From: Campylobacter sp. RM16704
GTDB lineage: Bacteria; Campylobacterota; Campylobacteria; Campylobacterales; Campylobacteraceae
Assembly (NCBI RefSeq): GCF_000816245.1
Contig: NZ_CP007769.1
Location: 124,464 to 156,463 of the forward strand
Reading direction: 5' to 3'
DNA: 32,000 nt
A program made the translations under genes and the position numbers. Positions 11,464-28,710 of the stretch are shown here, one piece after another. The notes beneath the pieces are model-generated. The model did not search any database. It saw only the letters and a program-made list of their open reading frames with translations, and was not told the origin of the DNA. Position 1 is the first letter of the stretch, and each line of letters begins with the position of its first letter.

Positions 11464-13547
11464 TAAATTTCCTTTTTGATTTTACATTTTAAGCACTCTA
11501 AAAATGTGCCTTTTTTAAGCTCTTTGACAATCAAAGTTTCGCCACATTCGCTGCATTTTTCTTCACTTGGCTTGTATTTGCTTATATAGTTGCATTTTGG
11601 ATAAGCACTACACCCATAAAATTTACCACGCTTAGAAAAACGCTCTACAATCTCACCTTCTTGACAGCTTTGGCATTTTACGCCTATGGTGTTGAGTTTT
11701 TTCTCGCTTTTTTCTTTATTTTGTGTTTCTTGTTTTAAATTTCTTGAGTATTTGCATTTTGGAAAATTTAAACAAGCCACAAATTCCCCATATCTTCCTT
11801 TTCTTATGGCAAGTTCGCCTCCACAATCAGGGCAAGTTTCATCTAATTTTGTGAAAGTTTTTTGGCTTTTTATATTTTTTTTACCCTCATCAATTTTTCT
11901 CATAAAAGGAAAATAAAATTCCCTTAAAACTTCTTGCCAGTCCATCTTACCTTCTGCGATGATGTCAAGTTTATCTTCCATTTTAGAAGTAAAATCGCTA
12001 TCTACTATATCACTAAAATTTTGCTCTAAAACTTCTGTTACAACAAAGGCTATTTCGTTAGGTATGATTTGCTTTTTATCTATATATACATATTCTCTTG
12101 CACTAAGTAAAGAGATAGTTGGAGCATAAGTTGATGGGCGTCCTATGCCAAGATTTTCTAATCTTTTAACAAGTCCAGCTTCTGAATATCTTGAAGGTGG
12201 CTCAGTAAAATGTGAGTTTAATTCTATATTTTGGATAAGAAGTGTATCTTCTATTTTTAAATTAGGCAAAATTTTATCCTTATCCATATCCCCATATACT
12301 TTATAATGCCCATCAAATAAAATTTTTCTACCACTTATTTTAAAATTTGCATCATTAGAATTTACAAAAACATTTTGAGTTTGAGATATAGCAGGATTCA
12401 TCTGTGAAGCTAGGAAACGATTATAAATTAGCGTATAAAGCTTTGCTTCATCTTTTTCTAAAAACTCATTTGCAAGTTTTGGGGTAAAGCTAAGATTAGT
12501 CGGTCTTATAGCTTCATGTGCTTCTTGAGCACCTTTACTTTTAGTGGTATAAATGTTTGCTTTGCTTGGTAAGTATTCTTTACCAAATTCTTTTTTTATA
12601 AGTTTTCTCACTTCTTCTAGTGCTTCTTTTGCTATGTTTAAGCTATCTGTTCTCATATAAGTGATTATACCCATAGTGCCTTGATGGGTTTTTACACCCT
12701 CATAAAGCTTTTGAGCTATCATCATAGTTTTTTTAGGGTTAAAGCCTAAGCGATTACTCGCACTTTGTTGTAAGGTTGAGGTCATAAAAGGAGCTTGTGG
12801 GGCTATTTTTCTATCTTTACTTTCTATATCTTTGACTTTAAAATTAGCATTTTTACAAGCTTTAAAGATAAGCTTAGCTCTATCTTCATTTGTTAAACTT
12901 AGTTTTTCTATCTTTTGATTTTGAAATTCAACCAATTCAGCTTGTAAGTCTTTTTCAAAAACCATATCGATGCTAAAGTATTTTAAAGGTACAAAAGCTT
13001 TGATTTCTCTTTCTCTATCGACTATGATTTTTAAAGCTGCACTTTGCACACGCCCTGCACTTAAACCTTTTTGAATTTTTTGATTTAGCAAAGGACTTAG
13101 TTTATAACCTACTATGCGATCAAGTAAGCGTCTAGTTTGCTGGGCATTGACACTATTTACATTTAAAGATCTTGGATTTTTTAAAGCATTTTCTATGGCA
13201 TTTTTAGTGATTTCATGAAAAACTATGCGTGGTAAGGAATTTTCATCTTTGTTAATAGCCTTAGCTATATGATAAGCTATGGCTTCACCTTCTCTATCTT
13301 CATCGGTTGCAAGGTAGATGGTTTTAGCCTTTTTAGCCTTTTCTTTGATCTCTTTTACTAAGTTTGAATGGTCATTTGAAATTCTATATTCGGGTTTAAA
13401 ATTTTCATCTTCTATTTTTATACCAAAGCTAGTTTTAGGCAAATCTCTAATGTGTCCTTTAGAAGCGATTACTTCATAATCTTTTCCTAAAAAATTGCCT
13501 ATGGTTTTGGCTTTAGCAGGTGATTCTACTATGATTAAATTTTTCAT
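11463..13547 (-). CDS. topA: DNA topoisomerase I
   Basis: 694 aa with a Toprim N-terminus (LIIVESPAKAKTI, ATDEDREGEAI), the catalytic YMRTDS region and several C-terminal C4 zinc ribbons. Confidence 0.97.
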   Translation of the reverse strand: MKNLIIVESPAKAKTIGNFLGKDYEVIASKGHIRDLPKTSFGIKIEDENFKPEYRISNDHSNLVKEIKEKAKKAKTIYLATDEDREGEAIAYHIAKAINKDENSLPRIVFHEITKNAIENALKNPRSLNVNSVNAQQTRRLLDRIVGYKLSPLLNQKIQKGLSAGRVQSAALKIIVDREREIKAFVPLKYFSIDMVFEKDLQAELVEFQNQKIEKLSLTNEDRAKLIFKACKNANFKVKDIESKDRKIAPQAPFMTSTLQQSASNRLGFNPKKTMMIAQKLYEGVKTHQGTMGIITYMRTDSLNIAKEALEEVRKLIKKEFGKEYLPSKANIYTTKSKGAQEAHEAIRPTNLSFTPKLANEFLEKDEAKLYTLIYNRFLASQMNPAISQTQNVFVNSNDANFKISGRKILFDGHYKVYGDMDKDKILPNLKIEDTLLIQNIELNSHFTEPPSRYSEAGLVKRLENLGIGRPSTYAPTISLLSAREYVYIDKKQIIPNEIAFVVTEVLEQNFSDIVDSDFTSKMEDKLDIIAEGKMDWQEVLREFYFPFMRKIDEGKKNIKSQKTFTKLDETCPDCGGELAIRKGRYGEFVACLNFPKCKYSRNLKQETQNKEKSEKKLNTIGVKCQSCQEGEIVERFSKRGKFYGCSAYPKCNYISKYKPSEEKCSECGETLIVKELKKGTFLECLKCKIKKEI

Positions 13548-13560
13548 TATTTTCCTTGTA

Positions 13561-13641
13561 AGGATTAAAATTAATGAAAGTGTATAAAAAAAAATTAAAT
13601 TTTTTGCTTAGAGAGAAAAAAGCCTACCAAAAGGTGAGCTT
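13561..13641 (-). repeat. Copy 1 of a duplicated ~80-bp flagellin-3'/topA-5' intergenic segment (degenerate terminator plus probable topA promoter)
   Basis: AGGATTAAAATTAATGAAAGTGTAT-A9-TTAAATTTTTTGCTTAGAGAGAAAAAAGCCTACCAAAAGGTGAGCTT. It recurs at 14413-14491 with A7 instead of A9 and two substitutions. The hairpin arm here (GGTAGGC) carries a mismatch relative to copy 2. Confidence 0.9.
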
Positions 13642-14410
13642 GTTTGCTCTAATGGTATCAAGATTTGCTATAGCAGTATCAGCTATATCCATAACAGCCA
13701 TAGCACCTCTTAAAGTAGTAACACCAGCTGATTGTTTGCTTCCAGCTAATGGCGCAGTTGTCATAGCATTAAAGCCCATAGCTGAAGCTATATCTGCACT
13801 AATTTCACCTTTGATACTTTCAAGATTAACTGTGCTTTGTGCTATTTGAGCTGATCCAATACCAGCGTTTGAAATATTAGTTCCACTTAAAAAAATATCA
13901 GAACCATCATTTTTAACTAAAGTTAGCCTACCATAGTTTTCTTCTTTTATTTGGCCATCTAAACCACCTGTTGAACCACTAATCTTAATACCTCTACCAT
14001 CTGCTGAATTTAACACTAATCTTCCATCTACTATAGAAGCTTCAACACCAGTAGTGTCTTTTTTAGCATTGATAGCAGCTACTAAAGCTCCATCTTTATC
14101 ATTTGCTTTAAATGTAACCTTACCTATAACAACACCGTTTATAGCAAAGGTTTGTCCTGTAGAACCAGCAGTTATTGCAGCACTTGATATAGTTTGAACC
14201 ACAGCAGTTGCTCTAACTCCTGTTTTATCAGAAGCTTTGTTAATCTCAGCTGCTAAAGCTCCAAGTCCTGTTCCAACACTATATGAAATATCTACGCCTT
14301 GAACTGTATAATCATTAATACCATCATATTTTTTGATGACAAGGTTTTGATTTGCCACCGCACCTGTAATATTTTTACCTGTTTCAAAGCGAGTTTGACC
14401 GATTTTTGCT
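13641..14410 (-). pseudogene. Promoterless internal flagellin fragment (codons ~167-422 of the adjacent flaA-like gene): a silent cassette or duplication remnant
   Basis: The 770 bp at 13641-14410 are identical base for base (checked line by line, constant offset 1080) to 14721-15490 inside the full-length flagellin gene. The fragment lacks the N-terminal 166 codons and the C-terminal ~70 codons. An in-frame stop lies upstream and there is no ATG or RBS. The ORF-track entry 13624-14358 begins at an internal GTG and ends in junction-derived ...RANKLTFW. Confidence 0.9.
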
Positions 14411-14412
14411 AG

Positions 14413-14491
14413 AGGATTAAAATTAATGAAAGTGTATAAAAAAATTAAATTTTTTGCTTAGAAAGAAAAAAGCCCACCAAAAGGTGAGCTT
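14413..14491 (-). repeat. Copy 2 of the duplicated ~80-bp intergenic segment (contains the functional-looking flagellin terminator)
   Basis: Same sequence as 13561-13641 apart from A7 versus A9, G/A and T/C differences. It lies between the full-length flagellin stop and the flagellin fragment. Confidence 0.9.
14466..14489 (-). terminator. Rho-independent terminator of the flaA-like gene
   Basis: On the minus strand: GCUCACC-UUUU-GGUGGGC followed by UUUUUU (7-bp stem with one G-U pair), 20 nt after the TAG stop. Confidence 0.7.
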
Positions 14492-14508
14492 AGGAGTTCG
14501 TAAATAAA

Positions 14509-15987
14509 CTACTGAAGTAATCTTAATACATTTTGAGAAGCTGCATTTGCTTGAGCCATAGCATAAGACCCACTTTGAGCTAAGATATTAGCTTTAGAGT
14601 AGTTTGCACTCTCACTTGCAAAGTCAACATCTCTAATTTGAGATTCAGCAGCTTTAACATTAACTTGAGTTACGCTAATGTTGTTAATAGTTGAGGTGAC
14701 TTGATTCATCGTAGCACCGATGTTTGCTCTAATGGTATCAAGATTTGCTATAGCAGTATCAGCTATATCCATAACAGCCATAGCACCTCTTAAAGTAGTA
14801 ACACCAGCTGATTGTTTGCTTCCAGCTAATGGCGCAGTTGTCATAGCATTAAAGCCCATAGCTGAAGCTATATCTGCACTAATTTCACCTTTGATACTTT
14901 CAAGATTAACTGTGCTTTGTGCTATTTGAGCTGATCCAATACCAGCGTTTGAAATATTAGTTCCACTTAAAAAAATATCAGAACCATCATTTTTAACTAA
15001 AGTTAGCCTACCATAGTTTTCTTCTTTTATTTGGCCATCTAAACCACCTGTTGAACCACTAATCTTAATACCTCTACCATCTGCTGAATTTAACACTAAT
15101 CTTCCATCTACTATAGAAGCTTCAACACCAGTAGTGTCTTTTTTAGCATTGATAGCAGCTACTAAAGCTCCATCTTTATCATTTGCTTTAAATGTAACCT
15201 TACCTATAACAACACCGTTTATAGCAAAGGTTTGTCCTGTAGAACCAGCAGTTATTGCAGCACTTGATATAGTTTGAACCACAGCAGTTGCTCTAACTCC
15301 TGTTTTATCAGAAGCTTTGTTAATCTCAGCTGCTAAAGCTCCAAGTCCTGTTCCAACACTATATGAAATATCTACGCCTTGAACTGTATAATCATTAATA
15401 CCATCATATTTTTTGATGACAAGGTTTTGATTTGCCACCGCACCTGTAATATTTTTACCTGTTTCAAAGCGAGTTTGACCGATTTTTGCTGAGTTAGTTG
15501 AACCTATAGTAGCATTTACAGTTTGGTTTGATTTGTCCCCGATCTGGAATTTTGCATTTGCAAAAGAACCACTTAAAAGTTGCTTACCATTGAAAGTTGT
15601 AGTATTTGCTATGTTTTCAAGTTCTTCCATAAGTTTTACGATTTCACCTTGAATCATCGCTCTAGTTTTAGCTGTTTGACCATCTTGAGCTGCTTGAGTA
15701 GCTTTAACTTTAATGGTATCTAGTATTTTTAATTGCTCATCCATAGCTTTATCAGCAATTTGAAGTATACCATTTGCATCGTTTGCATTGTTAATAGCTT
15801 GGCCTAAAGAATTAGCTTGAGTTCTTAAACTATCAGCAATCGCTAAACCAGAAGCATCATCTGCAGCAGAATTTATTCTCAAACCTGAACTAAGTCTTCC
15901 TAAAGAAGTATCTAAAGCTCTTGAGTTCAAAGTAGAGTTTACATGAGCATTTAAAGCTGCAGTATTTGTGTTAATACGAAATCCCAT
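14509..15987 (-). CDS. flaA: Flagellin, sigma28-promoter type (FlaA-like), 492 aa
   Basis: Canonical flagellin N-terminus (MGFRINTN...[16 protein letters not shown]) and C-terminus ([25 protein letters not shown]) around a Ser/Thr/Gly-rich central domain. A sigma28-like promoter lies upstream. Confidence 0.95.
15676..15757. repeat. 82-bp block identical, in inverted orientation, to 16378-16459 (codons 77-104 of both flagellin genes)
   Basis: The reverse complement of 15676-15757 equals 16378-16459 (TGCTGATAAAGCTATGGATGAGCAATTAAAAATACTAGATACCATTAAAGTTAAAGCTACTCAAGCAGCTCAAGATGGTCAA). A second block, 15847-15902, is the inverted copy of 16233-16288 (56 bp). Sequence between the blocks differs at many synonymous sites. 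Confidence 0.9.
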
Positions 15988-16037: not shown

Positions 16038-16064
16038 ATATCGGAAGTATTTTTTTTTTTTTTA
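16038..16064 (-). promoter_or_regulatory. Sigma28 (FliA)-type promoter for the flaA-like gene
   Basis: The minus strand reads TAAA (complement of 16061-16064), a ~16-nt spacer, then CCGATAT (complement of 16038-16044), about 50 nt upstream of the ATG. This matches the TAAA-N15/16-CCGATAT class used by Campylobacter flaA. Confidence 0.65.
16050..16063. repeat. Homopolymeric T14 (A14 on the flaA sense strand)
   Basis: Fourteen consecutive T read directly from the sequence. The tract occupies most of the spacer of the sigma28-type promoter and sits between the two divergent flagellin promoters. Confidence 0.95.
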
Positions 16065-16094: not shown

Positions 16095-16110
16095 TGGAAC
16101 ACTTATTGCT
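16095..16110 (+). promoter_or_regulatory. Sigma54 (RpoN)-type promoter for the flaB-like gene
   Basis: TGGAAC-ACTTA-TTGCT, with GG (16096-16097) and GC (16108-16109) separated by exactly 10 nt. This matches the TGGCAC-N5-TTGCW -24/-12 consensus, about 40 nt upstream of the ATG at 16148. Confidence 0.7.
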
Positions 16111-16147: not shown

Positions 16148-17626
16148 ATGGGTTTTAGAATAAACACCAACATAGGTGCAATGAATGCACACGCAAATTC
16201 AGTAATCACAGCTAGAGAATTAGATAAATCTCTAGGAAGACTTAGTTCAGGTTTGAGAATAAATTCTGCTGCAGATGATGCTTCTGGTATGGCAATAGCT
16301 GATTCACTTAGAAATCAAGCAGCATCTTTAGGTCAGGCTATTAACAATGGTAATGATGCTATAGGTATTTTACAAACTGCTGATAAAGCTATGGATGAGC
16401 AATTAAAAATACTAGATACCATTAAAGTTAAAGCTACTCAAGCAGCTCAAGATGGTCAATCAGCTAAAACTAGGGTTATGATACAAAATGAAATCAATCG
16501 TTTGATGGAAGAGCTTGATAACATAGCAAATACTACAGCTTTCAATGGTAAGCAACTTTTAAGTGGAAATTTTGTTAATCAAGAATTTCAAATTGGAGCT
16601 CAATCAAATCAAACCGTGCATGCAACCATAGGGCCAACTCAATCAGCAAAAATCGGTCATACTCGTTTTGAAACAGGTGCTAGAGTTACTGGTAGTACTA
16701 CTGCGAATTTAATATTAAAATCATATGATGGTATTAATGATTATACATTCCAACCTATTCCTATTTCATATAGTGTTGGAACAGGACTTGGAGCTTTAGC
16801 AGCTGAGATAAATAAAGTAGCTGATAAAACAGGAGTTAGAGCAACTGCTGTGGTTCAAACTATATCAAGTGGTGCATTAGCTGCTGGTTCTACAGGATCA
16901 AGTTTTGCTATAAATGGTGTTGTTATAGGTAAGGTTGCTTATGAGGCTGGAGATAAAAATGGAGCTTTGGCAGCTGCTATCAATGCTAAAAAAGACACTA
17001 CTGGGGTTGAAGCATCTGTAGTAGATGGAAAACTCATATTAAATTCAGCAGATGGTAGAGGTATTAAGATTAGTGGTTCAATGGGAAGTTTAGCTAATCA
17101 GGTTGTAGATGAAAATTACGGAAGACTTTCTTTGGTTAAAAATGATGGTAGAGATATATTATTAGGAGGAAGTAATATTTCTGCAGTCGGTCTTGGTTCA
17201 AATGCAGCTATGGCAGAAGTAACTGCAAATTTACAAGATATCAAAGGCAGAATTACACCTGATATAGCTTCAGCTATGGGCTTTAATGCTATGAGTACTG
17301 CTGAAAATATTACTAGTCCAAAAAGTGCTGGTGTAAGCACGCTAAGAGGTGCTATGGCTGTTATGGATTTAGCTGATAGTGCTATTATCACACTTGATAC
17401 TATTAGAGCAGATATTGGTGCAGTGCAAAATCAAATCACAGCTACTATTAATAATATCAGTGTAACTCAAGTAAATATTAAATCAGCTGAATCAACTATT
17501 AGAGATGTGGATTTTGCAGCTGAGAGTGCAAACTTTTCTAAATACAACATTCTAGCTCAAAGTGGTTCTTATGCTATGAGCCAAGCAAACGCTGTCCAAC
17601 AAAATGTATTAAAACTTTTACAATAA
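16148..17626 (+). CDS. flaB: Flagellin, sigma54-promoter type (FlaB-like), 492 aa
   Basis: Canonical flagellin termini, roughly 80% identical by eye to the divergent flaA-like protein. The ORF track starts at TTG 16133 (MKGFK...). The ATG at 16148 gives the conserved MGFRINTN start, is preceded by AAAGGA (16136-16141) and yields the same 492-aa length as its paralog. Confidence 0.95.
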
Positions 17627-17629
17627 GCC

Positions 17630-17650
17630 AAAGCCCTTTTAAAGGGCTTT
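17630..17650. terminator. Bidirectional hairpin between convergent flaB-like and the last maf gene
   Basis: AAAGCCC-TTTTAAA-GGGCTTT begins 4 nt after the flaB-like TAA and contains the stop codon of the maf ORF (complement of 17639-17641). Confidence 0.55.
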
Positions 17651-19477
17651 AAAATCGATTTTTTTCAATGCTTCATTTTGAATGGTTAAAAAGCTAATAA
17701 AATTTTCAAGCCATTCTTTGTTTGCTTCTAACCATTGTATGTTTTTTAACATTTTTTCTTCATCTGTGTTGATTGGTTTTACAAAAATAGTTGCTAGATT
17801 ACTTTCAAGATGAAAAAATAAAGGTTCAAATAATTCACTTTTTATAAAAGGATTATCATAAACTTTTATTTTAAAAGAATCAATTTTTTTAATCAATGCA
17901 GTAATGTTTTTTTGTGAATTTTCTTCTAGAATTTTATTTGTTTGGTTAAAAAGATTTTTTCCCTGTTGTAAGTATTTTTCCAAAATATTTAATTGTTTTT
18001 CTATAATTAAATGTATTTTTGTGGTATTTTTTTGGTGATTTTTATTTGGAAAAGCAAAATAAGGTTTATCTTCTTTTAATAACTCTTCACAAAGCTCTTT
18101 AAATGGTTTTTCTATAGCACCTTCTATCCTAGCTCCACCTTCAGTGGCGTTATAGGTTGTGATGTTTATTTTTTTATAAAGTTCAATATCTCTTTGAAAG
18201 GTTTTTCTAAAAATATCCCAGCACATATTCGTTTCTACCTTACCATTACCACCATAAGCAGTAACAAATAAACCTTCTTTTCTGTCATTTTCACTTTCTT
18301 GGGTATGTAGATATTCTTTAGGATGAGAATTTCCATCTTCTCCATAGGCTAAATCTTGTCCTATTAAGATGATATTTTTATGCCCTAATTTTTCAGCTAA
18401 ATCATAAGCCATATTAGCTACGCTTAAACCTGTACCTAAATAACCATAATCATTCATATTTAAAGCTTTAGAAAAAGGTAGTGGTCTATGTACTAATATA
18501 TATGGTTTTTTTGTTTTTTCTAAAGTATCTATAACACTTTTATGTGCTACACTAGCTACAATAAATAATATATCTTTATCAAATTCTTGATTATCTTTTT
18601 CAAAACACTGATAAACAAGGTTATGTCTTTCTAAAGCTAAAACATAATCAGGTTTTATATTATGTTTTGCAAGTATTGGATATGCCGTATCAGCACATAT
18701 AATAGTTGCCTTATTAACATATTCTTTTAACAAAGGTAATTGTTTTATCAAAGATGGACCAGTAGAAACTATAATAGCATTTTCTATTTTATCTTTTCTT
18801 TGTTGGATTAAGTCTTTTAAGCTAGGATTGGCTAGTTGATAAGGTAAATTATGTAAAAGTTGGGTGATGCCTTCAAAAGAATCTAGTGGAGAGTTTCCTT
18901 TAGCATCTGTGATATATTTAATAGCTTTTAATGTGATAGAATTGGTATTTAAAATATTTTCTTCATAGTATTTTTCATAATAATTAATTGTAATGTGAAG
19001 ATTATAGAGTTTTAAAAGAGTGTTTATACCTTTGTTTTCTAAAAAATTAACTAATATATTAAAATTTACTTTATAAAACAAAATCACTTTTTCACTTCTT
19101 AGCTCTTCGCTTAAATCTAAATAATGAAAAACCAAATAAATAATCTCTAATTCTTCTTCAAATATAACTAAATGATTTCTTAAAGGATTAGAAAGTAAAG
19201 CTTTGTATAAAATTCCATTACCCAAACCATAAAAAAATAAAACAGGATATCTTAAAAATTCTCCATTAAATAGTTTTAAACTTTCATCTAATTCTTTTAA
19301 AGGATCTTTATATACAAATTCTTTTCTTTTTTTATCTAGTATATTTATATCTAAATTATCATTACTTCCTTGAAAAAGTTCAAATCGTTCACACTCTTTA
19401 AGCTCTCTTAATTTTAAAGCTAAAGGCTGGTCTTTTTCAAATAAAGCTTGAGTGTTTTTTAAAAAAAGTTCATTCAT
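17639..19477 (-). CDS. maf: Motility accessory factor (Maf; DUF115/MAF_flag10 putative flagellin nonulosonic-acid glycosyltransferase), paralog 6 in transcription order
   Basis: 612 aa with Maf family motifs NAIIVSTGPSLIKQLPLLKE, IILIGQDLAYGEDGNSHPKE and TYNATEGGARIEGAIEKPF. Its N-terminal 135 aa are identical to the next paralog, and its catalytic core is identical to two others. Confidence 0.9.
   Translation of the reverse strand: MNELFLKNTQALFEKDQPLALKLRELKECERFELFQGSNDNLDINILDKKRKEFVYKDPLKELDESLKLFNGEFLRYPVLFFYGLGNGILYKALLSNPLRNHLVIFEEELEIIYLVFHYLDLSEELRSEKVILFYKVNFNILVNFLENKGINTLLKLYNLHITINYYEKYYEENILNTNSITLKAIKYITDAKGNSPLDSFEGITQLLHNLPYQLANPSLKDLIQQRKDKIENAIIVSTGPSLIKQLPLLKEYVNKATIICADTAYPILAKHNIKPDYVLALERHNLVYQCFEKDNQEFDKDILFIVASVAHKSVIDTLEKTKKPYILVHRPLPFSKALNMNDYGYLGTGLSVANMAYDLAEKLGHKNIILIGQDLAYGEDGNSHPKEYLHTQESENDRKEGLFVTAYGGNGKVETNMCWDIFRKTFQRDIELYKKINITTYNATEGGARIEGAIEKPFKELCEELLKEDKPYFAFPNKNHQKNTTKIHLIIEKQLNILEKYLQQGKNLFNQTNKILEENSQKNITALIKKIDSFKIKVYDNPFIKSELFEPLFFHLESNLATIFVKPINTDEEKMLKNIQWLEANKEWLENFISFLTIQNEALKKIDFKAL
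18240..18873 (-). repeat. maf catalytic-core module, copy 1 of 3 (634 bp)
   Basis: Near-identical (about three single-base differences seen by eye) to 23738-24371 and 27491-28124, at constant offsets of 5498 and 9251. Confidence 0.9.
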
Positions 19478-19488
19478 GTTTTTACCTT
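19074..19488 (-). repeat. maf N-terminal module type I, copy 1 of 2 (415 bp including RBS)
   Basis: Identical by eye to 20929-21343 (offset 1855). It covers codons 1-135 plus 11 nt upstream of the ATG. Confidence 0.9.
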
Positions 19489-21332
19489 GTAAGTTGAAAA
19501 AGCTCTATAGTATCATCTTTTATTGTGATATCAAATACATATAAAAGATGTAAAAGAGTTTTAAATGTTTCTTCGTATTCATTTAAAAGTTCTTCTAAAA
19601 TTTGTTTTTGTTCGTTTTCATCTTTTGGATTTTTACACAATATCGCATTCACTCTTAGCTCATGATGATATAAAATATGTGGGTAAAGCTCATAAGCTCC
19701 ATTTGATTTCTTACAAAGTTGATTTTTAAAAGCATCAATTTGTGAAAAAAGTTTTTTTACTTTTAAAGTCTTTTTGCATATTAGAATTTTTTCTAAAATA
19801 TTTTTTAATGTTTCAATGTTTTTTTGATTAAGCAAAAGCATTTTTTTTATATTTTTTGCTGCTCTTTGTAGATTTTTTCCTATTTTTGTTTGAGTGATTT
19901 TAAGAGGCTTTAGATAAGGTTTTTGGGTGAGTAATAACTCTTCACACACTTGCTTAAATGGTTTTTCTATAGCACATTCTATCCTAGCTCCACCTTCAGT
20001 GGCGTTATAAGTTTTTATACCTAGTGGATTCATCAAGGCTATGTCCTTTTCAAAAATATCTTTAAACATTTTCCATAAATAATTCGTTTCTACCTTACCA
20101 TTACCACCATAAGCTGTTATAAATAAATCTTGTTTTCTATCTCCTTCGAAGTCTTCTTCAAAATAATGATATTCTTTAGGATGAGAATTTCCATCTTCTC
20201 CATAGGCTAAATCTTGTCCTATTAAGATGATATTTTTATGTCCTAGTTTTATGGCTAATTCATAAGCCATATTAGCTACACTCATGCCACTCCCTAAATA
20301 ACCATAATCATTCATGTTTAAGCTTTGTGCAAATGGTAGTGGTCTATGTACTAACATAAAGTTTCTATTGTTTTTCTTAAGATAGTCTATTGTGTTTTTA
20401 TAGATTAAACTTACAACTATAAATAATATATCTTTATCAAAATCTTTAAAATCATTATTAAAAAATTCAGAAGTTAGTTCTATTCTTTCTAGAGATAATA
20501 CATAATCAGGTTTTATATTATGTTTTGCAAGTATTGGATAAGCACTATCAGCACATATAATAGTTGCCTTATTAACATATTCTTTTAATAAAGGTAATTG
20601 TTTTATCAAAGATGGACCAGTAGAAACTATAATAGCATTTTCTATTTTGTCTTTTCTTTGTTTGAGTAAATCTTTTAAGCTAGGGTTATTTAAAAGTGGG
20701 AGTAAATTCCTAGTTAGTTGGGTAATGCCTTGTAGAGAATCACTAGGAGCGTTTCCATTTTTCATATGATTTAATTTAATGGCTTGAATAATATTAGTAT
20801 TTATTGAACTTATATTGTAAGAATTATAAAAATCACAATGTGTAAAAAGATTATAAATTTTATAATAATTTTTTATAGTAGAATAAGTCATCAAAACATC
20901 AAGTTGGGTAAATGTTACTAATGGCGTGTAAAACAAAATCACTTTTTCACTTCTTAGCTCTTCGCTTAAATCTAAATAATGAAAAACCAAATAAATAATC
21001 TCTAATTCTTCTTCAAATATAACTAAATGATTTCTTAAAGGATTAGAAAGTAAAGCTTTGTATAAAATTCCATTACCCAAACCATAAAAAAATAAAACAG
21101 GATATCTTAAAAATTCTCCATTAAATAGTTTTAAACTTTCATCTAATTCTTTTAAAGGATCTTTATATACAAATTCTTTTCTTTTTTTATCTAGTATATT
21201 TATATCTAAATTATCATTACTTCCTTGAAAAAGTTCAAATCGTTCACACTCTTTAAGCTCTCTTAATTTTAAAGCTAAAGGCTGGTCTTTTTCAAATAAA
21301 GCTTGAGTGTTTTTTAAAAAAAGTTCATTCAT
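19482..21332 (-). CDS. maf: Motility accessory factor (Maf) paralog 5
   Basis: 616 aa with the Maf motifs. It has the type I N-terminal module, its own diverged core (…CADSAYPILAKHNIKPDYVLSLERIELTSEFF…) and a unique C-terminal tail. Confidence 0.9.
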   Translation of the reverse strand: MNELFLKNTQALFEKDQPLALKLRELKECERFELFQGSNDNLDINILDKKRKEFVYKDPLKELDESLKLFNGEFLRYPVLFFYGLGNGILYKALLSNPLRNHLVIFEEELEIIYLVFHYLDLSEELRSEKVILFYTPLVTFTQLDVLMTYSTIKNYYKIYNLFTHCDFYNSYNISSINTNIIQAIKLNHMKNGNAPSDSLQGITQLTRNLLPLLNNPSLKDLLKQRKDKIENAIIVSTGPSLIKQLPLLKEYVNKATIICADSAYPILAKHNIKPDYVLSLERIELTSEFFNNDFKDFDKDILFIVVSLIYKNTIDYLKKNNRNFMLVHRPLPFAQSLNMNDYGYLGSGMSVANMAYELAIKLGHKNIILIGQDLAYGEDGNSHPKEYHYFEEDFEGDRKQDLFITAYGGNGKVETNYLWKMFKDIFEKDIALMNPLGIKTYNATEGGARIECAIEKPFKQVCEELLLTQKPYLKPLKITQTKIGKNLQRAAKNIKKMLLLNQKNIETLKNILEKILICKKTLKVKKLFSQIDAFKNQLCKKSNGAYELYPHILYHHELRVNAILCKNPKDENEQKQILEELLNEYEETFKTLLHLLYVFDITIKDDTIELFQLTR

Positions 21333-21343
21333 GTTTTTACCTT
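20929..21343 (-). repeat. maf N-terminal module type I, copy 2 of 2
   Basis: See 19074-19488. Confidence 0.9.
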
Positions 21344-23125
21344 TGATTTATTTTTTATATCGGATAAAGCATTTTGTAAAATTATCCTTTGTTGATGTAA
21401 AAGATCGATAATTTCTTTTATGTATCTTTGATGATTAATAATGTATGATAATGTATTTATGAGCTGTTCTTGTTCATTTTGTGTTTTTAGACTTTGCAAT
21501 TTTATAAAATTTGGCTCATTTGCAAAAAGTAAAGTAAAAAGTATATCACTCATACTTTCCCAATTTTGTTGTGAAAATAATAAAGATTTAAAAGTTTTTA
21601 TATATTCTTGCGCCAAAATTATTTCATTATAATCTAAATTTTTAAGTGCATCTTCTAAAGTATAATTTTGAGCAATAAGATTGATTTTTTCTATAATAGG
21701 TTCTATTTTTTTTAATATTAAATCACACGAAGATGTAAAAATTATATTGGTTTTTATATGTTTTTCTAAAGTGGCAATCGAAGATAAAATGTAGTTTCTA
21801 GAATCATCATAAATTTCTAATTTTGGAAAAAATTTATTCTTGCCTTGTTTTAACTCTTCACAAAGCTCTTTAAATGGTTTTTCTATAGCACCTTCTATCC
21901 TAGCTCCACCTTCAGTGGCGTTATAAGTTGTGATAAGATGCTTGTTATTTTGTATATCTTCTTCATAAGCCTTCTTATAAAGCTCCCAAACACAATGAGT
22001 ATAAACCTCTCCTTTGCCACCATAAGCTAGTGTTTTTATAGGTTCATAACGATTTGTATCTAAGTTGCTTCCATGTAAAAATTCTTTAGGATGAGAATTT
22101 AAATTTTCATCATAGGCTAAATCTTGTCCTATTAAGATGATATTTGTATATCCTAAACCTATAGCAAAATGATACAAATAATTAGCCACACTTGAAAATT
22201 TTGTATCACTATAACCATAATCATCAAGTTTAAAAGTATGATTAAAATTGCTAGAAGTTAAAGTGATTATAATATTTTTTTTGTGATTTTGCAGAGTTTG
22301 AATAACATTGGGATTTGTGGTGCTTGAAAGAAGAAAAATAGCATTGTTGTCTTCAAAATATTTTTTAAAAAAAATATTTGGCAAGGTGCTTATTTCAATA
22401 TTTCCGATATAGTCAGGTTTTATACCATACTCATGTAAAATATTATAAGAACCATCAGCACAAAAAATACTCACCTTATTTTGAATTTCTTTTAACAAAG
22501 GAAGCTGTTTGATAAGACTAGGTCCACTTGCTACTATAATAGCATTTTTATTTTTTGCTTTATGTTTTAAAAGTAATTCTTTAGTACTTGGGTTTTTCAA
22601 GCATGTATAAAGATTTTTAGTAAAAATTTCCAAACCCTCTAAGCAGTGTTCACTTGAATGCATAGCGTTTTTTATATTTTCAAGTGTTTCAAGACATATT
22701 TTTTCTACAAAATCTTTGAGATTATGATTTTTAAATGGAAGTAATGTAAAAATCTCATGATAAAATAAAATATTCTGATTTAAAAACATTAATTTAGCTG
22801 TTTGGGTGTTAAAATCTAGTGAATTATAAATTTTTAATTTACCGTTTTTTAGAAAATCACTAAGATCATAGTTTTTAAAGATAAAATAAATCACTTCCAA
22901 GTCATCTTCAAAAATGATAAGATGTTTTAGTTTGTCGTTTTTGAAAAGTTCTAAGATATACTCTCCTATACCATAAATAAAAAGTGCAGGATAATTTGAA
23001 TAATTATCTGTAATTTTTTTTAAAAATAATTCATTCTTAATAGGTTTTTTATGTTTTTTACAAGTTAGAATTTTTGTTGCTAAATTTGATTCGATACTTA
23101 AAATGTTTTTTTGTAAAAAATTCAT
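21329..23125 (-). CDS. maf: Motility accessory factor (Maf) paralog 4, the most divergent member
   Basis: 598 aa with the Maf motifs (NAIIVASGPSLIKQLPLLKE, IILIGQDLAYDENLNSHPKE, TYNATEGGARIEGAIEKPF). It has a distinct, shorter N-terminus. ATGA overlaps on both sides. Confidence 0.88.
   Translation of the reverse strand: MNFLQKNILSIESNLATKILTCKKHKKPIKNELFLKKITDNYSNYPALFIYGIGEYILELFKNDKLKHLIIFEDDLEVIYFIFKNYDLSDFLKNGKLKIYNSLDFNTQTAKLMFLNQNILFYHEIFTLLPFKNHNLKDFVEKICLETLENIKNAMHSSEHCLEGLEIFTKNLYTCLKNPSTKELLLKHKAKNKNAIIVASGPSLIKQLPLLKEIQNKVSIFCADGSYNILHEYGIKPDYIGNIEISTLPNIFFKKYFEDNNAIFLLSSTTNPNVIQTLQNHKKNIIITLTSSNFNHTFKLDDYGYSDTKFSSVANYLYHFAIGLGYTNIILIGQDLAYDENLNSHPKEFLHGSNLDTNRYEPIKTLAYGGKGEVYTHCVWELYKKAYEEDIQNNKHLITTYNATEGGARIEGAIEKPFKELCEELKQGKNKFFPKLEIYDDSRNYILSSIATLEKHIKTNIIFTSSCDLILKKIEPIIEKINLIAQNYTLEDALKNLDYNEIILAQEYIKTFKSLLFSQQNWESMSDILFTLLFANEPNFIKLQSLKTQNEQEQLINTLSYIINHQRYIKEIIDLLHQQRIILQNALSDIKNKSKVKT
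21995..22145 (-). repeat. 151-bp maf sub-module shared only by paralogs 4 and 2
   Basis: 21995-22145 equals 25626-25776 (offset 3631). It encodes ...IILIGQDLAYDENLNSHPKEFLHGSNLDTNRYEPIKTLAYGGKGEVYTH. Confidence 0.85.
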
Positions 23126-24975
23126 TTATCTTCCTTTGAAATAGCACTATAAAACTCTTTTAGTGTTGATTGAAGAATTTTTAGCCATTCTTCTTGTTTT
23201 AAAACCCATAGTATCATCCTTGTTTTTTTATCTTCTTGGTTTATTGCCGGTATTAAATAAATTTTTGCAAGTTCTAGTTCAACATCTTTTAATGCAGGAA
23301 CTAAAATTTCACCCAATAAAGCAAAATCTTTTTCAAATGTAATTTTAAAATTATGAATTTGATTATTGATGTTTAAAATTTGTGAAAAATCTAATTTTGC
23401 AATATCTGTGGTTGATTTTATATAGGTTATAATGCTTTGTAAACTTATGCTAAGTTTTTGAATTTGATTTAGTATATTTACATTGAAGATTTTTTCTATA
23501 CCCTTATCAATTTCATCTTTTTTGATTTTTAATTCTTTTTCATTTAAACCTTGTAATTTTTCAAAATAAGGTTTATCTTTTTTTAATAACTCTTCACAAA
23601 GCTCTTTAAATGGTTTTTCTATAGCACCTTCTATCCTAGCTCCACCTTCAGTGGCATTATAGGTTGTGATGTTATTGGTATCTATAGAATATTCTAAACT
23701 TTCCTTGAATAAAATCCACCATTGATTAGTCTCAACTTTACCATTACCACCATAAGCAGTAACAAATAAACCTTCTTTTCTATCATTTTCACTTTCTTGG
23801 GTATGTAGATATTCTTTAGGATGAGAATTTCCATCTTCTCCATAGGCTAAATCTTGTCCTATTAAGATGATATTTTTATGCCCTAATTTTTCAGCTAAAT
23901 CATAAGCCATATTAGCTACGCTTAAACCTGTACCTAAATAACCATAATCATTCATATTTAAAGCTTTAGAAAAAGGTAGTGGTCTATGTACTAATATATA
24001 TGGTTTTTTTGTTTTTTCTAAAGTATCTATAACACTTTTATGTGCTACACTAGCTACAATAAATAATATATCTTTATCAAATTCTTGATTATCTTTTTCA
24101 AAACACTGATAAACAAGGTTATGTCTTTCTAAAGCTAAAACATAATCAGGTTTTATATTATGTTTTGCAAGTATTGGATATGCCGTATCAGCACATATAA
24201 TAGTTGCCTTATTAACATATTCTTTTAACAAAGGTAATTGTTTTATCAAAGATGGACCAGTAGAAACTATAATAGCATTTTCTATTTTATCTTTTCTTTG
24301 TTGGATTAAGTCTTTTAAGCTAGGGTTGGCTAGTTGATAAGGTAAATTATGTAAGAGTTGGGTGATGCCTTGGATGGAACTTTTAGGGGAGTTTCCTTGA
24401 TCATTAACTAAGTAAAAACATAAATTTTTAACTTGCGAAGAAAGATTGTCATAATAATCATCTTTATAATAATTATTATGTGATAAAAGCTCACTATTTT
24501 GAAGGTAGTTTTTTACATTAAGATCTTCTCTGAGTAGTTTTTTTAAATTTTGTTTGTGAAAATTTTCTACCACATACAATCTTTTCTCTTTTAATTCTTC
24601 ACTTAAATCTATTAGATGAAAAACTATATAAAGTATTTCAATATTAGGTTCAAAAACAACTATACTTTTATGATTTTCATTTTTTAACAAAGCTTTATAC
24701 AATAAACCATTACCCAAACCATAAAAAAATAAAACAGGATATCTTTCATATTTAGTATAAATTTCATTGTATTTTTCATCAAAGAATTTTTCAGGATTAT
24801 CATAGAAGCTTTGTTTTAATTCGTGATCGTATATATTTATATCAAAAGTACTTTTTCCTGCAAATACTTCAAAACGCTCATTTGATTTTATACCTTCTAT
24901 TTTATCAGCCAAGATAGCATTATACTCTTCTAATGCTTCTAGGTTTTTAGTAAAATTTGCTTCATAGGCGTTCAT
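23122..24975 (-). CDS. maf: Motility accessory factor (Maf) paralog 3
   Basis: 617 aa. It combines the type II N-terminal module (shared with paralog 2) with the core and post-core module shared with paralog 1, plus a unique tail. Confidence 0.9.
   Translation of the reverse strand: MNAYEANFTKNLEALEEYNAILADKIEGIKSNERFEVFAGKSTFDINIYDHELKQSFYDNPEKFFDEKYNEIYTKYERYPVLFFYGLGNGLLYKALLKNENHKSIVVFEPNIEILYIVFHLIDLSEELKEKRLYVVENFHKQNLKKLLREDLNVKNYLQNSELLSHNNYYKDDYYDNLSSQVKNLCFYLVNDQGNSPKSSIQGITQLLHNLPYQLANPSLKDLIQQRKDKIENAIIVSTGPSLIKQLPLLKEYVNKATIICADTAYPILAKHNIKPDYVLALERHNLVYQCFEKDNQEFDKDILFIVASVAHKSVIDTLEKTKKPYILVHRPLPFSKALNMNDYGYLGTGLSVANMAYDLAEKLGHKNIILIGQDLAYGEDGNSHPKEYLHTQESENDRKEGLFVTAYGGNGKVETNQWWILFKESLEYSIDTNNITTYNATEGGARIEGAIEKPFKELCEELLKKDKPYFEKLQGLNEKELKIKKDEIDKGIEKIFNVNILNQIQKLSISLQSIITYIKSTTDIAKLDFSQILNINNQIHNFKITFEKDFALLGEILVPALKDVELELAKIYLIPAINQEDKKTRMILWVLKQEEWLKILQSTLKEFYSAISKEDK
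23491..24371 (-). repeat. 881-bp maf core plus post-core module, copy 1 of 2
   Basis: Near-identical to 27244-28124 (offset 3753; two single-base differences noticed). It includes the 634-bp core shared with 18240-18873. Confidence 0.9.
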
Positions 24976-24976
24976 G
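24569..24976 (-). repeat. maf N-terminal module type II, copy 1 of 2 (408 bp)
   Basis: Equals 26482-26889 (offset 1913) with one mismatch noticed (Leu/Phe codon). Identity stops right at the ATG. Confidence 0.9.
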
Positions 24977-26888
24977 AGTTTTCCTCTATGAAATTTTTTA
25001 GGTTTGTTAAAGAATTTTTTATAGTGCTAATTTGTTTTTTTAAAGTATCAATAACTATTTTTAGCCATTCCTCATGAGCTATGACCCACATGATCATACG
25101 AATTTTTTTATCTTCTTGAGTGTGTGCACTCATCATTGAAATTTTAGCTAGTGTTGTTTCTTTAGAGGCTAAAGCGGTTGTTAGTGCTTCGCTAAAAAAA
25201 CCCATATTTTCATCTTCCAAAAATTCTTTAATCTTATGTAATTTTTCATTTATATCTAAAAGTTTTACAAAATCTATTTTTTCAAGATCGATTTGATAGC
25301 TTGTTTGGTTTATAAGATTTAAGATTGGTATTAAAATTTCTTCACATTGAGTTGTTTTTTTTTCTGCTAATGGTATGATTTTGACTAATGAATCATAAGC
25401 ATTTTTTGCAAGTTCGAGTTGTTTTTTTGTATCTATATAATACAATGGTTCAAAAATTATTTGTTTTTCCTTAAGAAGTAAATTTTGACAAATAGCTTCA
25501 AAAGATTCTTCTTTGGCATGGTTGATTCTTGAGCCTCCTTCAGTTGCGTTATAGGTTGTTATACCTTTTTTTAAGGCATCTTGTATAGAAAATTCGAAAT
25601 TTTGTCTATAAGTATTCCAAGCTCCATGAGTATAAACCTCTCCTTTGCCACCATAAGCTAGTGTTTTTATAGGTTCATAACGATTTGTATCTAAGTTGCT
25701 TCCATGTAAAAATTCTTTAGGATGAGAATTTAAATTTTCATCATAGGCTAAATCTTGTCCTATTAAGATGATATTTTTATGTTCAAGTTTTAATGCTAAA
25801 CTATAAGCCATAGTCGATACATTTAATCCTCCAAGAGTTCCAAAATCTTGCAAATGTAAAAAATTTTTATGTAAAAGAGTGTTTTTTGAAATAAGCATAT
25901 AATTTCTATTATTAGACTCAAGATATTCTAAAGTTTTACTATGTGCGGAGTCTGAAATTACAAATAAAATATTTTTATCAAAATCTCCAAAATCATTATT
26001 AAAAAATTCACTTGATAAATCATTTTGCTCTAAACATACAACATAATCAGGTTTTATATTATGCTTTGCAAGTATTGGATAGCTTCCATCAACACATATA
26101 ATAGTTGCCTTGTTAGCGTATTCTTTTAATAAAGGTAATTGTTTTATCAAAGATGGACCAGTAGAAACTATAATAGCATTTTCTATTTTATCTTTTCTTT
26201 GTTGGATTAAATCTTTTAAGGGAGGATGAGAAATCATTTTAGGAATATTGCAAATGTATTTTTGCATATCATCTAAATATCTTTCAACATTAAAACCTAA
26301 GGCACTATATAAAAAATTTAAATTCTGCTCTAAATTATGATTTATTTCATCTATACTAGATTGAAAATAATCATAGTAGTTGCAATGACTAAAAATTTTA
26401 CTATCATATAAATAACTTCTTAAGCCTAAAGTTCCACTAAAATAAGCAATAATATCCATCATATCAAAATCATTTGCATCCACCACATACAATCTTTTCT
26501 CTTTTAATTCTTCACTAAAATCTATTAGATGAAAAACTATATAAAGTATTTCAATATTAGGTTCAAAAACAACTATACTTTTATGATTTTCATTTTTTAA
26601 CAAAGCTTTATACAATAAACCATTACCCAAACCATAAAAAAATAAAACAGGATATCTTTCATATTTAGTATAAATTTCATTGTATTTTTCATCAAAGAAT
26701 TTTTCAGGATTATCATAGAAGCTTTGTTTTAATTCGTGATCGTATATATTTATATCAAAAGTACTTTTTCCTGCAAATACTTCAAAACGCTCATTTGATT
26801 TTATACCTTCTATTTTATCAGCCAAGATAGCATTATACTCTTCTAATGCTTCTAGGTTTTTAGTAAAATTTGCTTCATAGGCGTTCAT
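24972..26888 (-). CDS. maf: Motility accessory factor (Maf) paralog 2
   Basis: 638 aa with the Maf motifs. It has the type II N-terminal module, its own core (…CVDGSYPILAKHNIKPDYVVCLEQNDLSSEFF…) and a terminal NATEGGSRINHAKEESF variant. Confidence 0.9.
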   Translation of the reverse strand: MNAYEANFTKNLEALEEYNAILADKIEGIKSNERFEVFAGKSTFDINIYDHELKQSFYDNPEKFFDEKYNEIYTKYERYPVLFFYGLGNGLLYKALLKNENHKSIVVFEPNIEILYIVFHLIDFSEELKEKRLYVVDANDFDMMDIIAYFSGTLGLRSYLYDSKIFSHCNYYDYFQSSIDEINHNLEQNLNFLYSALGFNVERYLDDMQKYICNIPKMISHPPLKDLIQQRKDKIENAIIVSTGPSLIKQLPLLKEYANKATIICVDGSYPILAKHNIKPDYVVCLEQNDLSSEFFNNDFGDFDKNILFVISDSAHSKTLEYLESNNRNYMLISKNTLLHKNFLHLQDFGTLGGLNVSTMAYSLALKLEHKNIILIGQDLAYDENLNSHPKEFLHGSNLDTNRYEPIKTLAYGGKGEVYTHGAWNTYRQNFEFSIQDALKKGITTYNATEGGSRINHAKEESFEAICQNLLLKEKQIIFEPLYYIDTKKQLELAKNAYDSLVKIIPLAEKKTTQCEEILIPILNLINQTSYQIDLEKIDFVKLLDINEKLHKIKEFLEDENMGFFSEALTTALASKETTLAKISMMSAHTQEDKKIRMIMWVIAHEEWLKIVIDTLKKQISTIKNSLTNLKNFIEENS

Positions 26889-26889
26889 A
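26482..26889 (-). repeat. maf N-terminal module type II, copy 2 of 2
   Basis: See 24569-24976. Confidence 0.9.
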
Positions 26890-28710
26890 TAGACCTTCTT
26901 CCATGGTTTTTACTTGTAATTTTATATGGGGAATGATAAAATCAATCCAGTTTTTATGTATATCTAAATATTCTTGTCTTTTGGCGTATTCTTCTTCTAT
27001 ATTATTAGGATTTTTTATATAATTTTGTGCAATTATATATTCAAAATGAAAAAATATTGAGCGAATTAAATCTAAAAAATAATTTTTAAATTCTTCCTCT
27101 TCAAATTTGGACTTCATTTGATAAATTCTTTGACTTAATGGTTTAAAATTTTCATCATTAAATTTTAAATTTTCTAAGCAATCAATTAAATCTAGCTTTA
27201 AAAGTTCACATTCGCTGATATAAGTTTTTGCTAAAATGAGATTTTTTTCTATACCCTCATCAATTTCATCTTTTTTGATTTTTAATTCTTTTTCATTTAA
27301 ACCTTGTAATTTTTCAAAATAAGGTTTATCTTTTTTTAATAACTCTTCACAAAGCTCTTTAAATGGTTTTTCTATAGCACCTTCTATCCTAGCTCCACCT
27401 TCAGTGGCATTATAGGTTGTGATGTTATTGGTATCTATAGAATATTCTAAACTTTCCTTGAATAAAATCCACCATTGATTAGTCTCAACTTTACCATTAC
27501 CACCATAAGCAGTAACAAATAAACCTTCTTTTCTATCATTTTCACTTTCTTGGGTATGTAGATATTCTTTAGGATGAGAATTTCCATCTTCTCCATAGGC
27601 TAAATCTTGTCCTATTAAGATGATATTTTTATGCCCTAATTTTTCAGCTAAATCATAAGCCATATTAGCTACGCTTAAACCTGTACCTAAATAACCATAA
27701 TCATTCATATTTAAAGCTTTAGAAAAAGGTAGTGGTCTATGTACTAATATATATGGTTTTTTTGTTTTTTCTAAAGTATCTATAACACTTTTATGTGCTA
27801 CACTAGCTACAATAAATAATATATCTTTATCAAATTCTTGATTATCTTTTTCAAAACACTGATAAACAAGGTTATGTCTTTCTAAAGCTAAAACATAATC
27901 AGGTTTTATATTATGTTTTGCAAGTATTGGATATGCCGTATCAGCACATATAATAGTTGCCTTATTAACATATTCTTTTAACAAAGGTAATTGTTTTATC
28001 AAAGATGGACCAGTAGAAACTATAATAGCATTTTCTATTTTATCTTTTCTTTGTTGGATTAAGTCTTTTAAGCTAGGGTTGGCTAGTTGATAAGGTAAAT
28101 TATGTAAAAGTTGGGTGATGCCTTCAAAAGAATCCTCTGAAGAATTTCCTTGCCTAAGTACTAGTGATTTTATGCTTTCAATACATAAAGAATTTATTTT
28201 ATTGATTTTTTCTCCGTAGTTTTCGTAAAAATTTGATACAAAAAGCAAATCATAAGTTTTTACATAAAAATGAATTTTCTCTTGCTCAAAAAATCGATAA
28301 AAAGTTAAAAAATTAACATCTTCATATAAATAAATTTGTAATCTTTTATTTTGTAAATCTTGACTAAAATCATTCAAATGTAAAGCAATGTATAAAAGTT
28401 CTATTTCAGGTTCTATAATGCAAATATAGTCTTTCAAAGGGTTTTTTAAAAGATTGTGTATTAATACTCCATTACCAATCCCAAAAAAAATCAAAAAAGG
28501 ATGTCTTTTATAATTTTGCTCATAAAAAGATAAATTGTTTAATGTATTTTGTACGCAAAATTGCTTCGTTATATGATCGTATATATCATAGTTTTTCTCA
28601 AAAAGCTCGAATCTTTCGTTACTTTTGATTTGTAAAATTTTTTCTGCTAAAATTGGATTTGCACTTTTTAGAGTTTGTAAATTTTTAGAAAAATTTAGCT
28701 CAAGTTGCAT
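26875..28710 (-). CDS. maf: Motility accessory factor (Maf) paralog 1 (first after pseI)
   Basis: 611 aa. It has a unique N-terminal module (MQLELNFSKNLQTLK...), the shared core plus post-core module and a unique tail. Overlaps the next maf by 14 nt. Confidence 0.9.
   Translation of the reverse strand: MQLELNFSKNLQTLKSANPILAEKILQIKSNERFELFEKNYDIYDHITKQFCVQNTLNNLSFYEQNYKRHPFLIFFGIGNGVLIHNLLKNPLKDYICIIEPEIELLYIALHLNDFSQDLQNKRLQIYLYEDVNFLTFYRFFEQEKIHFYVKTYDLLFVSNFYENYGEKINKINSLCIESIKSLVLRQGNSSEDSFEGITQLLHNLPYQLANPSLKDLIQQRKDKIENAIIVSTGPSLIKQLPLLKEYVNKATIICADTAYPILAKHNIKPDYVLALERHNLVYQCFEKDNQEFDKDILFIVASVAHKSVIDTLEKTKKPYILVHRPLPFSKALNMNDYGYLGTGLSVANMAYDLAEKLGHKNIILIGQDLAYGEDGNSHPKEYLHTQESENDRKEGLFVTAYGGNGKVETNQWWILFKESLEYSIDTNNITTYNATEGGARIEGAIEKPFKELCEELLKKDKPYFEKLQGLNEKELKIKKDEIDEGIEKNLILAKTYISECELLKLDLIDCLENLKFNDENFKPLSQRIYQMKSKFEEEEFKNYFLDLIRSIFFHFEYIIAQNYIKNPNNIEEEYAKRQEYLDIHKNWIDFIIPHIKLQVKTMEEGLYERL
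27244..28124 (-). repeat. 881-bp maf core plus post-core module, copy 2 of 2
   Basis: See 23491-24371. Positions 27491-28124 are also the third copy of the 634-bp core. Confidence 0.9.

Follow-up and report, generated by a model that had tools for sequence, protein, structure and literature searches.

A partial flagellin copy between flaA and topA of Campylobacter sp. RM16704, probably the non-coding remnant of a local rearrangement

The flagellin locus of Campylobacter sp. RM16704 raises a simple question: what is the nature of the partial flagellin gene copy that lies between the flagellin gene flaA and the topoisomerase gene topA? This copy, called X' below, belongs to a stretch of 32,000 nucleotides (nt) of contig NZ_CP007769.1 (positions 124,464 to 156,463), referred to as the window, in which all positions are numbered from the first letter. 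An initial annotation of this DNA had left two answers side by side, namely a silent cassette donating sequence to flaA in the manner of pilS and pilE, and an inert remnant of a duplication followed by a deletion. The anatomy of the locus and the comparison with related genomes bear out the second answer: X' is probably a non-coding remnant of a local rearrangement that occurred in the RM16704 lineage, and not a purpose-built element. A nuance has to be added to this conclusion, since gene conversion with flaA probably preserves the identity of the remnant, which may also be transcribed.

Positions 13641-14410 (X', minus strand) reproduce base for base positions 14721-15490 of flaA (segment X) over exactly 770 nt, and the identity ends on both sides. 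A repeat of this length makes a chance origin impossible. The initial annotation had reported this identity and assigned the fragment to flaA codons ~167-422. Both statements hold: 0 differences separate the two segments, and tblastn aligns X' with residues 167-422 of FlaA at 100% identity, this fragment being the only one detected in the 32-kb window. X' comprises the variable D2/D3 part of the protein and the first ~17 residues of its C-terminal helical region. The only Pfam domain recognized in X' is Flagellin_IN: Flagellin_N, found at residues 5-142 of FlaA, is missing, and Flagellin_C, found at residues 406-491, is covered for ~17 of 86 positions. In the flagellin frame a stop codon stands 16 codons upstream, within the flank copy described below. 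No ATG is present at the start of X', which has no ribosome-binding site (RBS) and no translation start of its own. At the other end, the frame leaves flagellin after ...DTIRAN and terminates as KLTFW-stop. Both flagellin termini are required for export and assembly and, because the Flagellin_N and Flagellin_C regions are missing, X' cannot give a functional flagellin. The initial annotation was therefore right to deny the fragment any export- or assembly-competent product, and the in-frame upstream stop, the lack of ATG and RBS and the loss of both termini on which it had relied are all confirmed by the sequence and by Pfam. RefSeq carries within X' an open reading frame (ORF) of 244 amino acids (aa) at 13624-14358, with an internal GTG start, under the accession WP_052244946 and the name "flagellin hook IN motif-containing protein". 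X' is better treated as a pseudogene fragment than as this protein.

The duplication is not limited to flagellin sequence. The ~80-nt 3' flank of flaA, which the initial annotation had left out, is also present in two copies on the minus strand, F1 next to topA (13561-13641) and F2 next to flaA (14412-14491), each of them consisting of the flaA terminator followed by the topA upstream element. Base 13641 is common to F1 and X', which overlap by 1 nt at their joint, and one extra base, a T in gene orientation, occupies position 14411 (minus strand) at the junction of F2 and X'. The genes flaA (14509-15987) and topA (11463-13547, which encodes a type I DNA topoisomerase of 694 aa and follows the duplicated region) belong to the minus strand as well, and read in gene orientation the locus is arranged as flaA[N-X-Y]-F2-T-X'-F1-topA. 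In this notation N is the N-terminal part of flaA (15491-15987) and Y its single-copy C-terminal part (14509-14720). A spacer of 17 nt (14492-14508, minus strand) leads from the flaA stop to the terminator; it is also single copy, and is missing together with Y from the fragment copy. At the other end, 13 nt containing the RBS separate F1 from topA. The rho-independent terminator of F2 is intact and is matched by a terminator scan at 14491-14470 (a stem of 9 bp and a T-run); the F1 hairpin contains one stem mismatch. The predicted energies are -14.8 kcal/mol for F2 and -13.3 kcal/mol for F1, and the T-run is T7 in F2 versus T9 in F1.

The comparison with relatives is based on ten related flaA-topA loci, nine from Campylobacter lari (L001, L077-L081, L090-L092) and one from C. 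peloridis (L089). The ancestral layout seen in these two species consists of flaA, a 17-nt spacer, a flank of ~85 nt (terminator plus topA promoter and leader) and topA. The distance from the flaA stop to the topA start is 110-113 nt in all ten loci versus 961 nt in RM16704. The survey for the fragment proposed by the initial annotation shows that it is absent from 10/10 of these loci, and it is also missing from the loci of C. armoricus, C. volucris, C. lari NCTC 11845 and the metagenome-assembled genome (MAG) MAG073. More generally, tblastn with FlaA reveals no partial internal flagellin copy in the 93 loci fetched outside the window. Since the ten related loci are devoid of the fragment, the extra 852 bp of RM16704 is a lineage-specific gain.

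The two joints indicate how this gain presumably arose. The extra DNA contains only second copies of two local segments, whose original order (X, then flank) and orientation are kept. In relatives the flank ends with AATCCTCACAAGG, and flaA reads AACTCAGCAAAA at the 5' edge of X; the F2/X' joint, AATCCTC-T-AGCAAAA, thus contains an inserted T in addition to a CTC(A) microhomology. At the X'/F1 joint the sequence is ...GCAAAC/AAGCTCACC, with a single A common to both sides. F1 and F2 share TTTCATTAA, where C. lari has TTTTACTAA, as well as a 2-nt deletion after the hairpin. Because these common states differ from those of C. lari, F1 and F2 are paralogues born within the RM16704 lineage. The simplest history would be a duplication followed by a deletion. 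A 1,078-nt segment made of X (codons 167-422), Y with its spacer, and the flank would have been tandemly duplicated by illegitimate recombination at the CTC(A) microhomology, one T being added at the joint. The topA-proximal copy would then have lost the 229 nt of Y and spacer through a joint with 1-nt microhomology. Alternatively, a single replication event with two template switches would make both joints and lead to the same product.

A relic of an ancestral third tandem flagellin gene was also considered as the source of X', and rejected. F2 ends with AATCCTC, as does the flank of the relatives, where this motif precedes ACAAGGAAAATAATG (ACAAGG); F2 therefore ends where the topA leader of the relatives runs into the RBS. 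This end, together with the lineage-specific states shared by F1 and F2, identifies F2 as a copy of the topA-proximal flank and not as an old intergenic region.

The best-fitting category for X' is that of partial tandem-duplication remnants, or gene-fragment pseudogenes, which are an ordinary kind of feature. All four of their characteristics are found here (4/4): local copies, illegitimate joints, a single-copy ancestor in relatives and no functional product. As in other remnants of this type, the second copy of contiguous local segments is in direct orientation, the joints show 0-4 nt of microhomology, the copy has no flagellin promoter, RBS or start codon of its own, and close relatives are without it. 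RM16704 differs from them in two respects: the copy lost its 229-nt C-terminal segment in a further event, and the long repeat is 100% identical even though the short co-duplicated flank has diverged.

An error of assembly or finishing, or a structure limited to a culture subpopulation of the sequenced stock, would also account for several of these observations. An identity of 100% over 770 nt is expected of a spurious or very recent duplication, and the exact repeat exceeds the short reads of that sequencing era, which were below 770 nt. Moreover, one genome only carries the fragment, and both metagenome scans, one for the X'/F1 junction (with its flagellin part degenerate) and one for the RM16704-specific flank allele, were without a match. 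However, the misassembly of a repeat joins sequences within repeats; it would not make two new joints between unrelated sequences, nor would it yield flank copies differing by three substitutions and a 2-nt indel. The three F1 substitutions would also be hard to gain in laboratory passage, the record is that of a finished genome, and the RefSeq annotation retains the fragment ORF. Because both joints link unrelated sequences and the flank copies differ, the structure is judged from its sequence to be real with high probability, and an artefact is unlikely.

The duplicated flank has a bearing on the possible expression of the remnant. The ~65 nt upstream of topA (TAAGCAAAAAATTTAA, a T8-10 run, then ATACAC...AATCCTCACAAGGAAAATAATG) are kept in every C. 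lari-group locus that was aligned, regardless of whether flaA, a maf gene or a flagellin promoter precedes them. This element occurs at 13548-13612 and 14412-14462 of the window and upstream of topA in L002, L003, L082, L084 and L088, and it is conserved in C. lari, C. armoricus, C. volucris and MAG073. Since its conservation does not depend on the gene upstream, it is presumably topA's own promoter and leader. The F2 copy stops at -13 relative to the would-be topA ATG, and so has no RBS. The initial annotation had called the fragment promoterless, and this description stands in part. No sigma-28 or sigma-54 motif was found by pattern search upstream of X', but F2 puts a copy of the topA upstream element directly before it, so that the promoterless status of X' is not established. 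X' may be transcribed from F2 as an untranslated sense RNA ending at the F1 terminator.

A regulatory by-product of the rearrangement has to be weighed at this point. The inserted terminator-promoter-fragment-terminator unit would alter the read-through from the strongly expressed flaA into topA or, as a variant, the F2-driven sense RNA across X' would affect the flaA mRNA or protein. This proposal draws on the complete copy of the ~65-nt element in F2, whose conservation is independent of the gene upstream, and on the new situation of topA, which now lies behind two terminators, the F1 hairpin having a derived stem mismatch and the weaker of the two energies, and behind a second copy of its own upstream element. 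On the other hand, the sense RNA has no obvious base-pairing target, relatives without this arrangement manage with one flank, and a sigma-70 consensus scan of the minus strand flags no promoter in F1 or F2, the E. coli-type consensus being uninformative here. This is the least probable of the explanations considered. A further ORF of 91 aa (13574-13849, plus strand) starts in F1, from an ATG that follows an AAGGA, and crosses X' in antisense. Its ATG depends on the TTTCATTAA variant of RM16704 and C. peloridis, its length depends on an A9 run, and we consider it spurious.

The remnant and its flank do not show the same degree of conservation. X and X' have 0 differences over 770 nt, whereas three substitutions and one indel (2 nt, in the T-run) distinguish F1 from F2 over ~81 nt, a contrast with a Fisher p of 8e-4 for the substitutions alone and of 8e-5 with the indel included. 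Three states are derived in F1 with respect to F2 and all relatives (a G to A change in the terminator stem, a T to C change downstream, and AATCCTC to AATCCTT), and the shortened T-run is derived in F2. An identical long repeat beside a diverged short flank indicates a later homogenisation, and X' probably exchanges sequence with flaA for this same reason. Gene conversion of the RecA type with flaA would hold X' identical to X, while the 80-nt flank copies, being short and one of them parted from X by Y, would escape conversion and drift. To this extent the donor idea of the initial annotation receives indirect support. The match between the two segments agrees with transfer from flaA to X' as well as from X' to flaA.

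The neighboring maf genes (motility accessory factor, MptE-like PF01973) bear the same type of footprint. Six tandem maf paralogues (17639-28710, minus strand) are mosaics sharing exact tracts of 404 nt (19074 versus 20929), 542 nt (18285, 23783 and 27536), 849 nt (23506 versus 27259) and 371 nt (24605 versus 26518), in genes that are otherwise 69-83% identical. These tracts read as a clear footprint of gene conversion, a process that is therefore active in this locus. The resemblance to X and X' resides in the long exact tracts (371-849 nt) between neighboring paralogues; the difference is that the maf genes are intact ORFs and X' is not. In C. jejuni, maf genes often contain phase-variable poly-G tracts. 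No G/C homopolymer of at least 7 nt is present anywhere in the window (1-32000), maf genes included.

Several points weigh against the remnant reading, or against the part given in it to conversion and transcription. The contrast between the long repeat and the flank could also be explained by a very recent duplication combined with the import of a divergent topA-F1 allele through natural transformation, or by mutations that the rearrangement itself brought about. A fragment truly subject to conversion would, moreover, not be inert in the strict sense. The suggested transcription from F2 comes from conservation only. Finally, the taxon is represented by a single genome in the collections searched, and the fragment may be fixed, polymorphic or culture-born. 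As to the first of these points, an origin of F1 in a sequenced species was examined and rejected, 0/3 of the derived F1 bases being found in any relative; an unsampled donor could have provided them.

The other answer offered at the outset is that X' is a promoterless partial donor to flaA through unidirectional gene conversion, in the pilS/pilE manner, its role being antigenic variation, variation of a phage receptor, or the repair of flaA. X' is indeed a partial copy in direct orientation beside an expressed gene; the surface-exposed variable region lies within it, and it is without a flagellin promoter, RBS or start codon. The identity of X and X' despite the divergence of the flank copies suggests sequence exchange, and conversion tracts are common in the neighboring maf genes. 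Intragenomic recombination between flaA and flaB is furthermore documented in Campylobacter (PMC5126078, citing Wassenaar 1995 and Harrington 1997; for recombination and concerted evolution of the two genes, also Alm 1993 and Meinersmann and Hiett 2000, as cited therein). However, X' occurs once in the window, matches flaA at every position and has at present no alternative information to donate. It is missing from the ten related loci and from the other C. lari-group loci fetched, no guanine quadruplex (G4) or other initiator motif was found on either strand of the window, and no Rfam match was obtained in the flank or in the rest of the window. Joints of illegitimate type that also copied a terminator and the topA leader look accidental, and a full-length flaB is already there as a diverged donor. 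The pilS-like reading of the initial annotation is thus not sustained, given one copy, no difference, no G4 and absence in relatives, and it is very unlikely.

Comparison with known systems leads in the same direction. The flaA and flaB genes of Campylobacter resemble the pair studied here as side-by-side homologous flagellin sequences between which tracts can pass by RecA-dependent recombination, the variable, glycosylated middle domain being part of what is exchanged. Unlike X', which is incomplete, probably untranslated and present in one genome, flaB is complete, expressed and conserved in the genus; in the window flaB is head-to-head with flaA and ~77% identical to it, whereas X' is an identical direct repeat. 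The pilE/pilS pilin variation of Neisseria and the analogous vls, MgPar and tprK donor systems resemble this locus in that the variable part of a gene for a surface-filament subunit has a partial copy near the expression locus. For pilS/pilE the analogy extends only to the partial and probably untranslated nature of the copy. In these systems, however, the donors are several to many, differ from the expressed gene and are conserved across strains, whereas X' is one, identical and not conserved; Neisseria pilE/pilS moreover has a G4-forming initiator with a cis-encoded small RNA, and no G4 is found here. The literature searched contained nothing specific on silent cassettes of flagellin or on flaA pseudogenes in C. 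lari.

A further reading would have X' maintained for recombination with flaA, as a single cassette archiving the variable domain that gene conversion keeps in register with the gene or from which it donates periodically. This is highly unlikely. If it were true, the surface-exposed glycosylated part of FlaA would be repaired or reshuffled independently of flaB, and no partial silent flagellin cassette would have been described in Campylobacter before X'.

The surroundings of the remnant can now be described. In Campylobacter, flaA is under sigma-28 control and flaB under sigma-54 control (PMC5126078). The gene next to X' was named flaA and the divergent gene flaB because the former is preceded by a sigma-28-like motif, TAAA-N-CCGATAT (16040-16064, minus strand), and the latter by a sigma-54-like motif, TGGAAC-N5-TTGC (16095-16109, plus strand), both detected as pattern matches. 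FlaA (492 aa, identical to AJC85672/WP_039666461 of RM16704) contains Flagellin_N, Flagellin_IN and Flagellin_C according to Pfam, and is 83-87% identical to the C. lari flagellins that adjoin topA. The flaB gene (16148-17626, plus strand; its product matches AJC85673 of RM16704 at 492/492 aa), also supported by Pfam, is head-to-head with flaA, and shares with it exact runs of up to 82 nt at the nucleotide identity given above. RM16704, whose TopA (P0122) agrees with that of the window at 694/694 residues, is a separate taxon of the C. lari group with one public genome. A scan of genome contigs with TopA yielded 76 loci, among which there was no second genome of this taxon. The DNA of its housekeeping genes is ~92% identical to that of C. 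lari, and the next-best TopA among 5.8 billion proteins is 97% identical and belongs to C. armoricus. The 90%-identity flagellin cluster was found to contain no other protein besides that of RM16704.

The arrangement of the flagellin genes varies within the group. In C. peloridis and C. lari other than strain NCTC 11845, as in the window, the flaA and flaB genes form a head-to-head pair in which flaA is directed at topA. C. lari NCTC 11845 (L088, CP007775, 1168-6488) carries its two flagellin genes in tandem, each of them divergent from topA, an arrangement that an inversion through recombination between inverted flagellin genes would explain. In C. volucris and a related MAG, tandem flagellin genes are located ~1.9 kb from topA, and in C. 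armoricus a maf gene lies between the flagellin genes and topA. The tandem flagellin genes of C. armoricus are separated by 788-942 nt, a length that differs between the two strains (L082, 3528-4314; L083, 3374-4314), and no flagellin-like sequence was found in this gap with the window FlaA at E<1e-6. Protein searches with the fragment return mostly "partial" flagellins situated at the ends of draft contigs. The one apparent internal truncated flagellin among them, P0243 (381 aa, L093 5985-7146, in the 1.5-Mb scaffold NFNE01000005.1), was rejected as a scaffold-join artefact because it starts right after an N run, beside unrelated genes. Four loci with C. lari-group-like topA and flagellin genes (L001, which is NFOE01000114.1, L004, L005 and L014) bear "Campylobacter jejuni" titles. 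The TopA of L001 is 96% identical to that of the window and its flagellin is of the short C. lari type, and these organism labels look wrong.

The remnant is expected to have consequences for the strain. A crossover between X and X' would delete 1,080 bp and leave a FlaA of 427 aa ending with ...IRANKLTFW, without its C-terminus. Such a deletion would be a one-way flaA-off mutation, counter-selected wherever motility matters. Since this crossover costs flaA, the fragment cannot be purged via the long repeat. A crossover between F2 and F1 would instead delete 852 bp and restore the ancestral layout, with only 80 nt of imperfect homology to act upon. These predicted consequences are side effects, none of them is a selected function, and there is no sign of a dedicated function. 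The fragment would bear on flagellin antigenic variation only in the event that further isolates of this taxon turned out to conserve it in a diverged form.

For RM16704 itself, a direct repeat of 770 nt is predicted to cost flaA its C-terminus frequently and irreversibly, and hence to give rise to non-motile or poorly motile variants of the strain. In practice, the fragment can confound flaA typing, the polymerase chain reaction and short-read assembly. More broadly, this locus provides an example of illegitimate duplication and deletion leaving gene fragments in a recombination-prone region devoted to a surface structure, and the identity of a 770-nt repeat next to a diverged 80-nt flank would illustrate in nature, on a small scale, how gene conversion depends on length.

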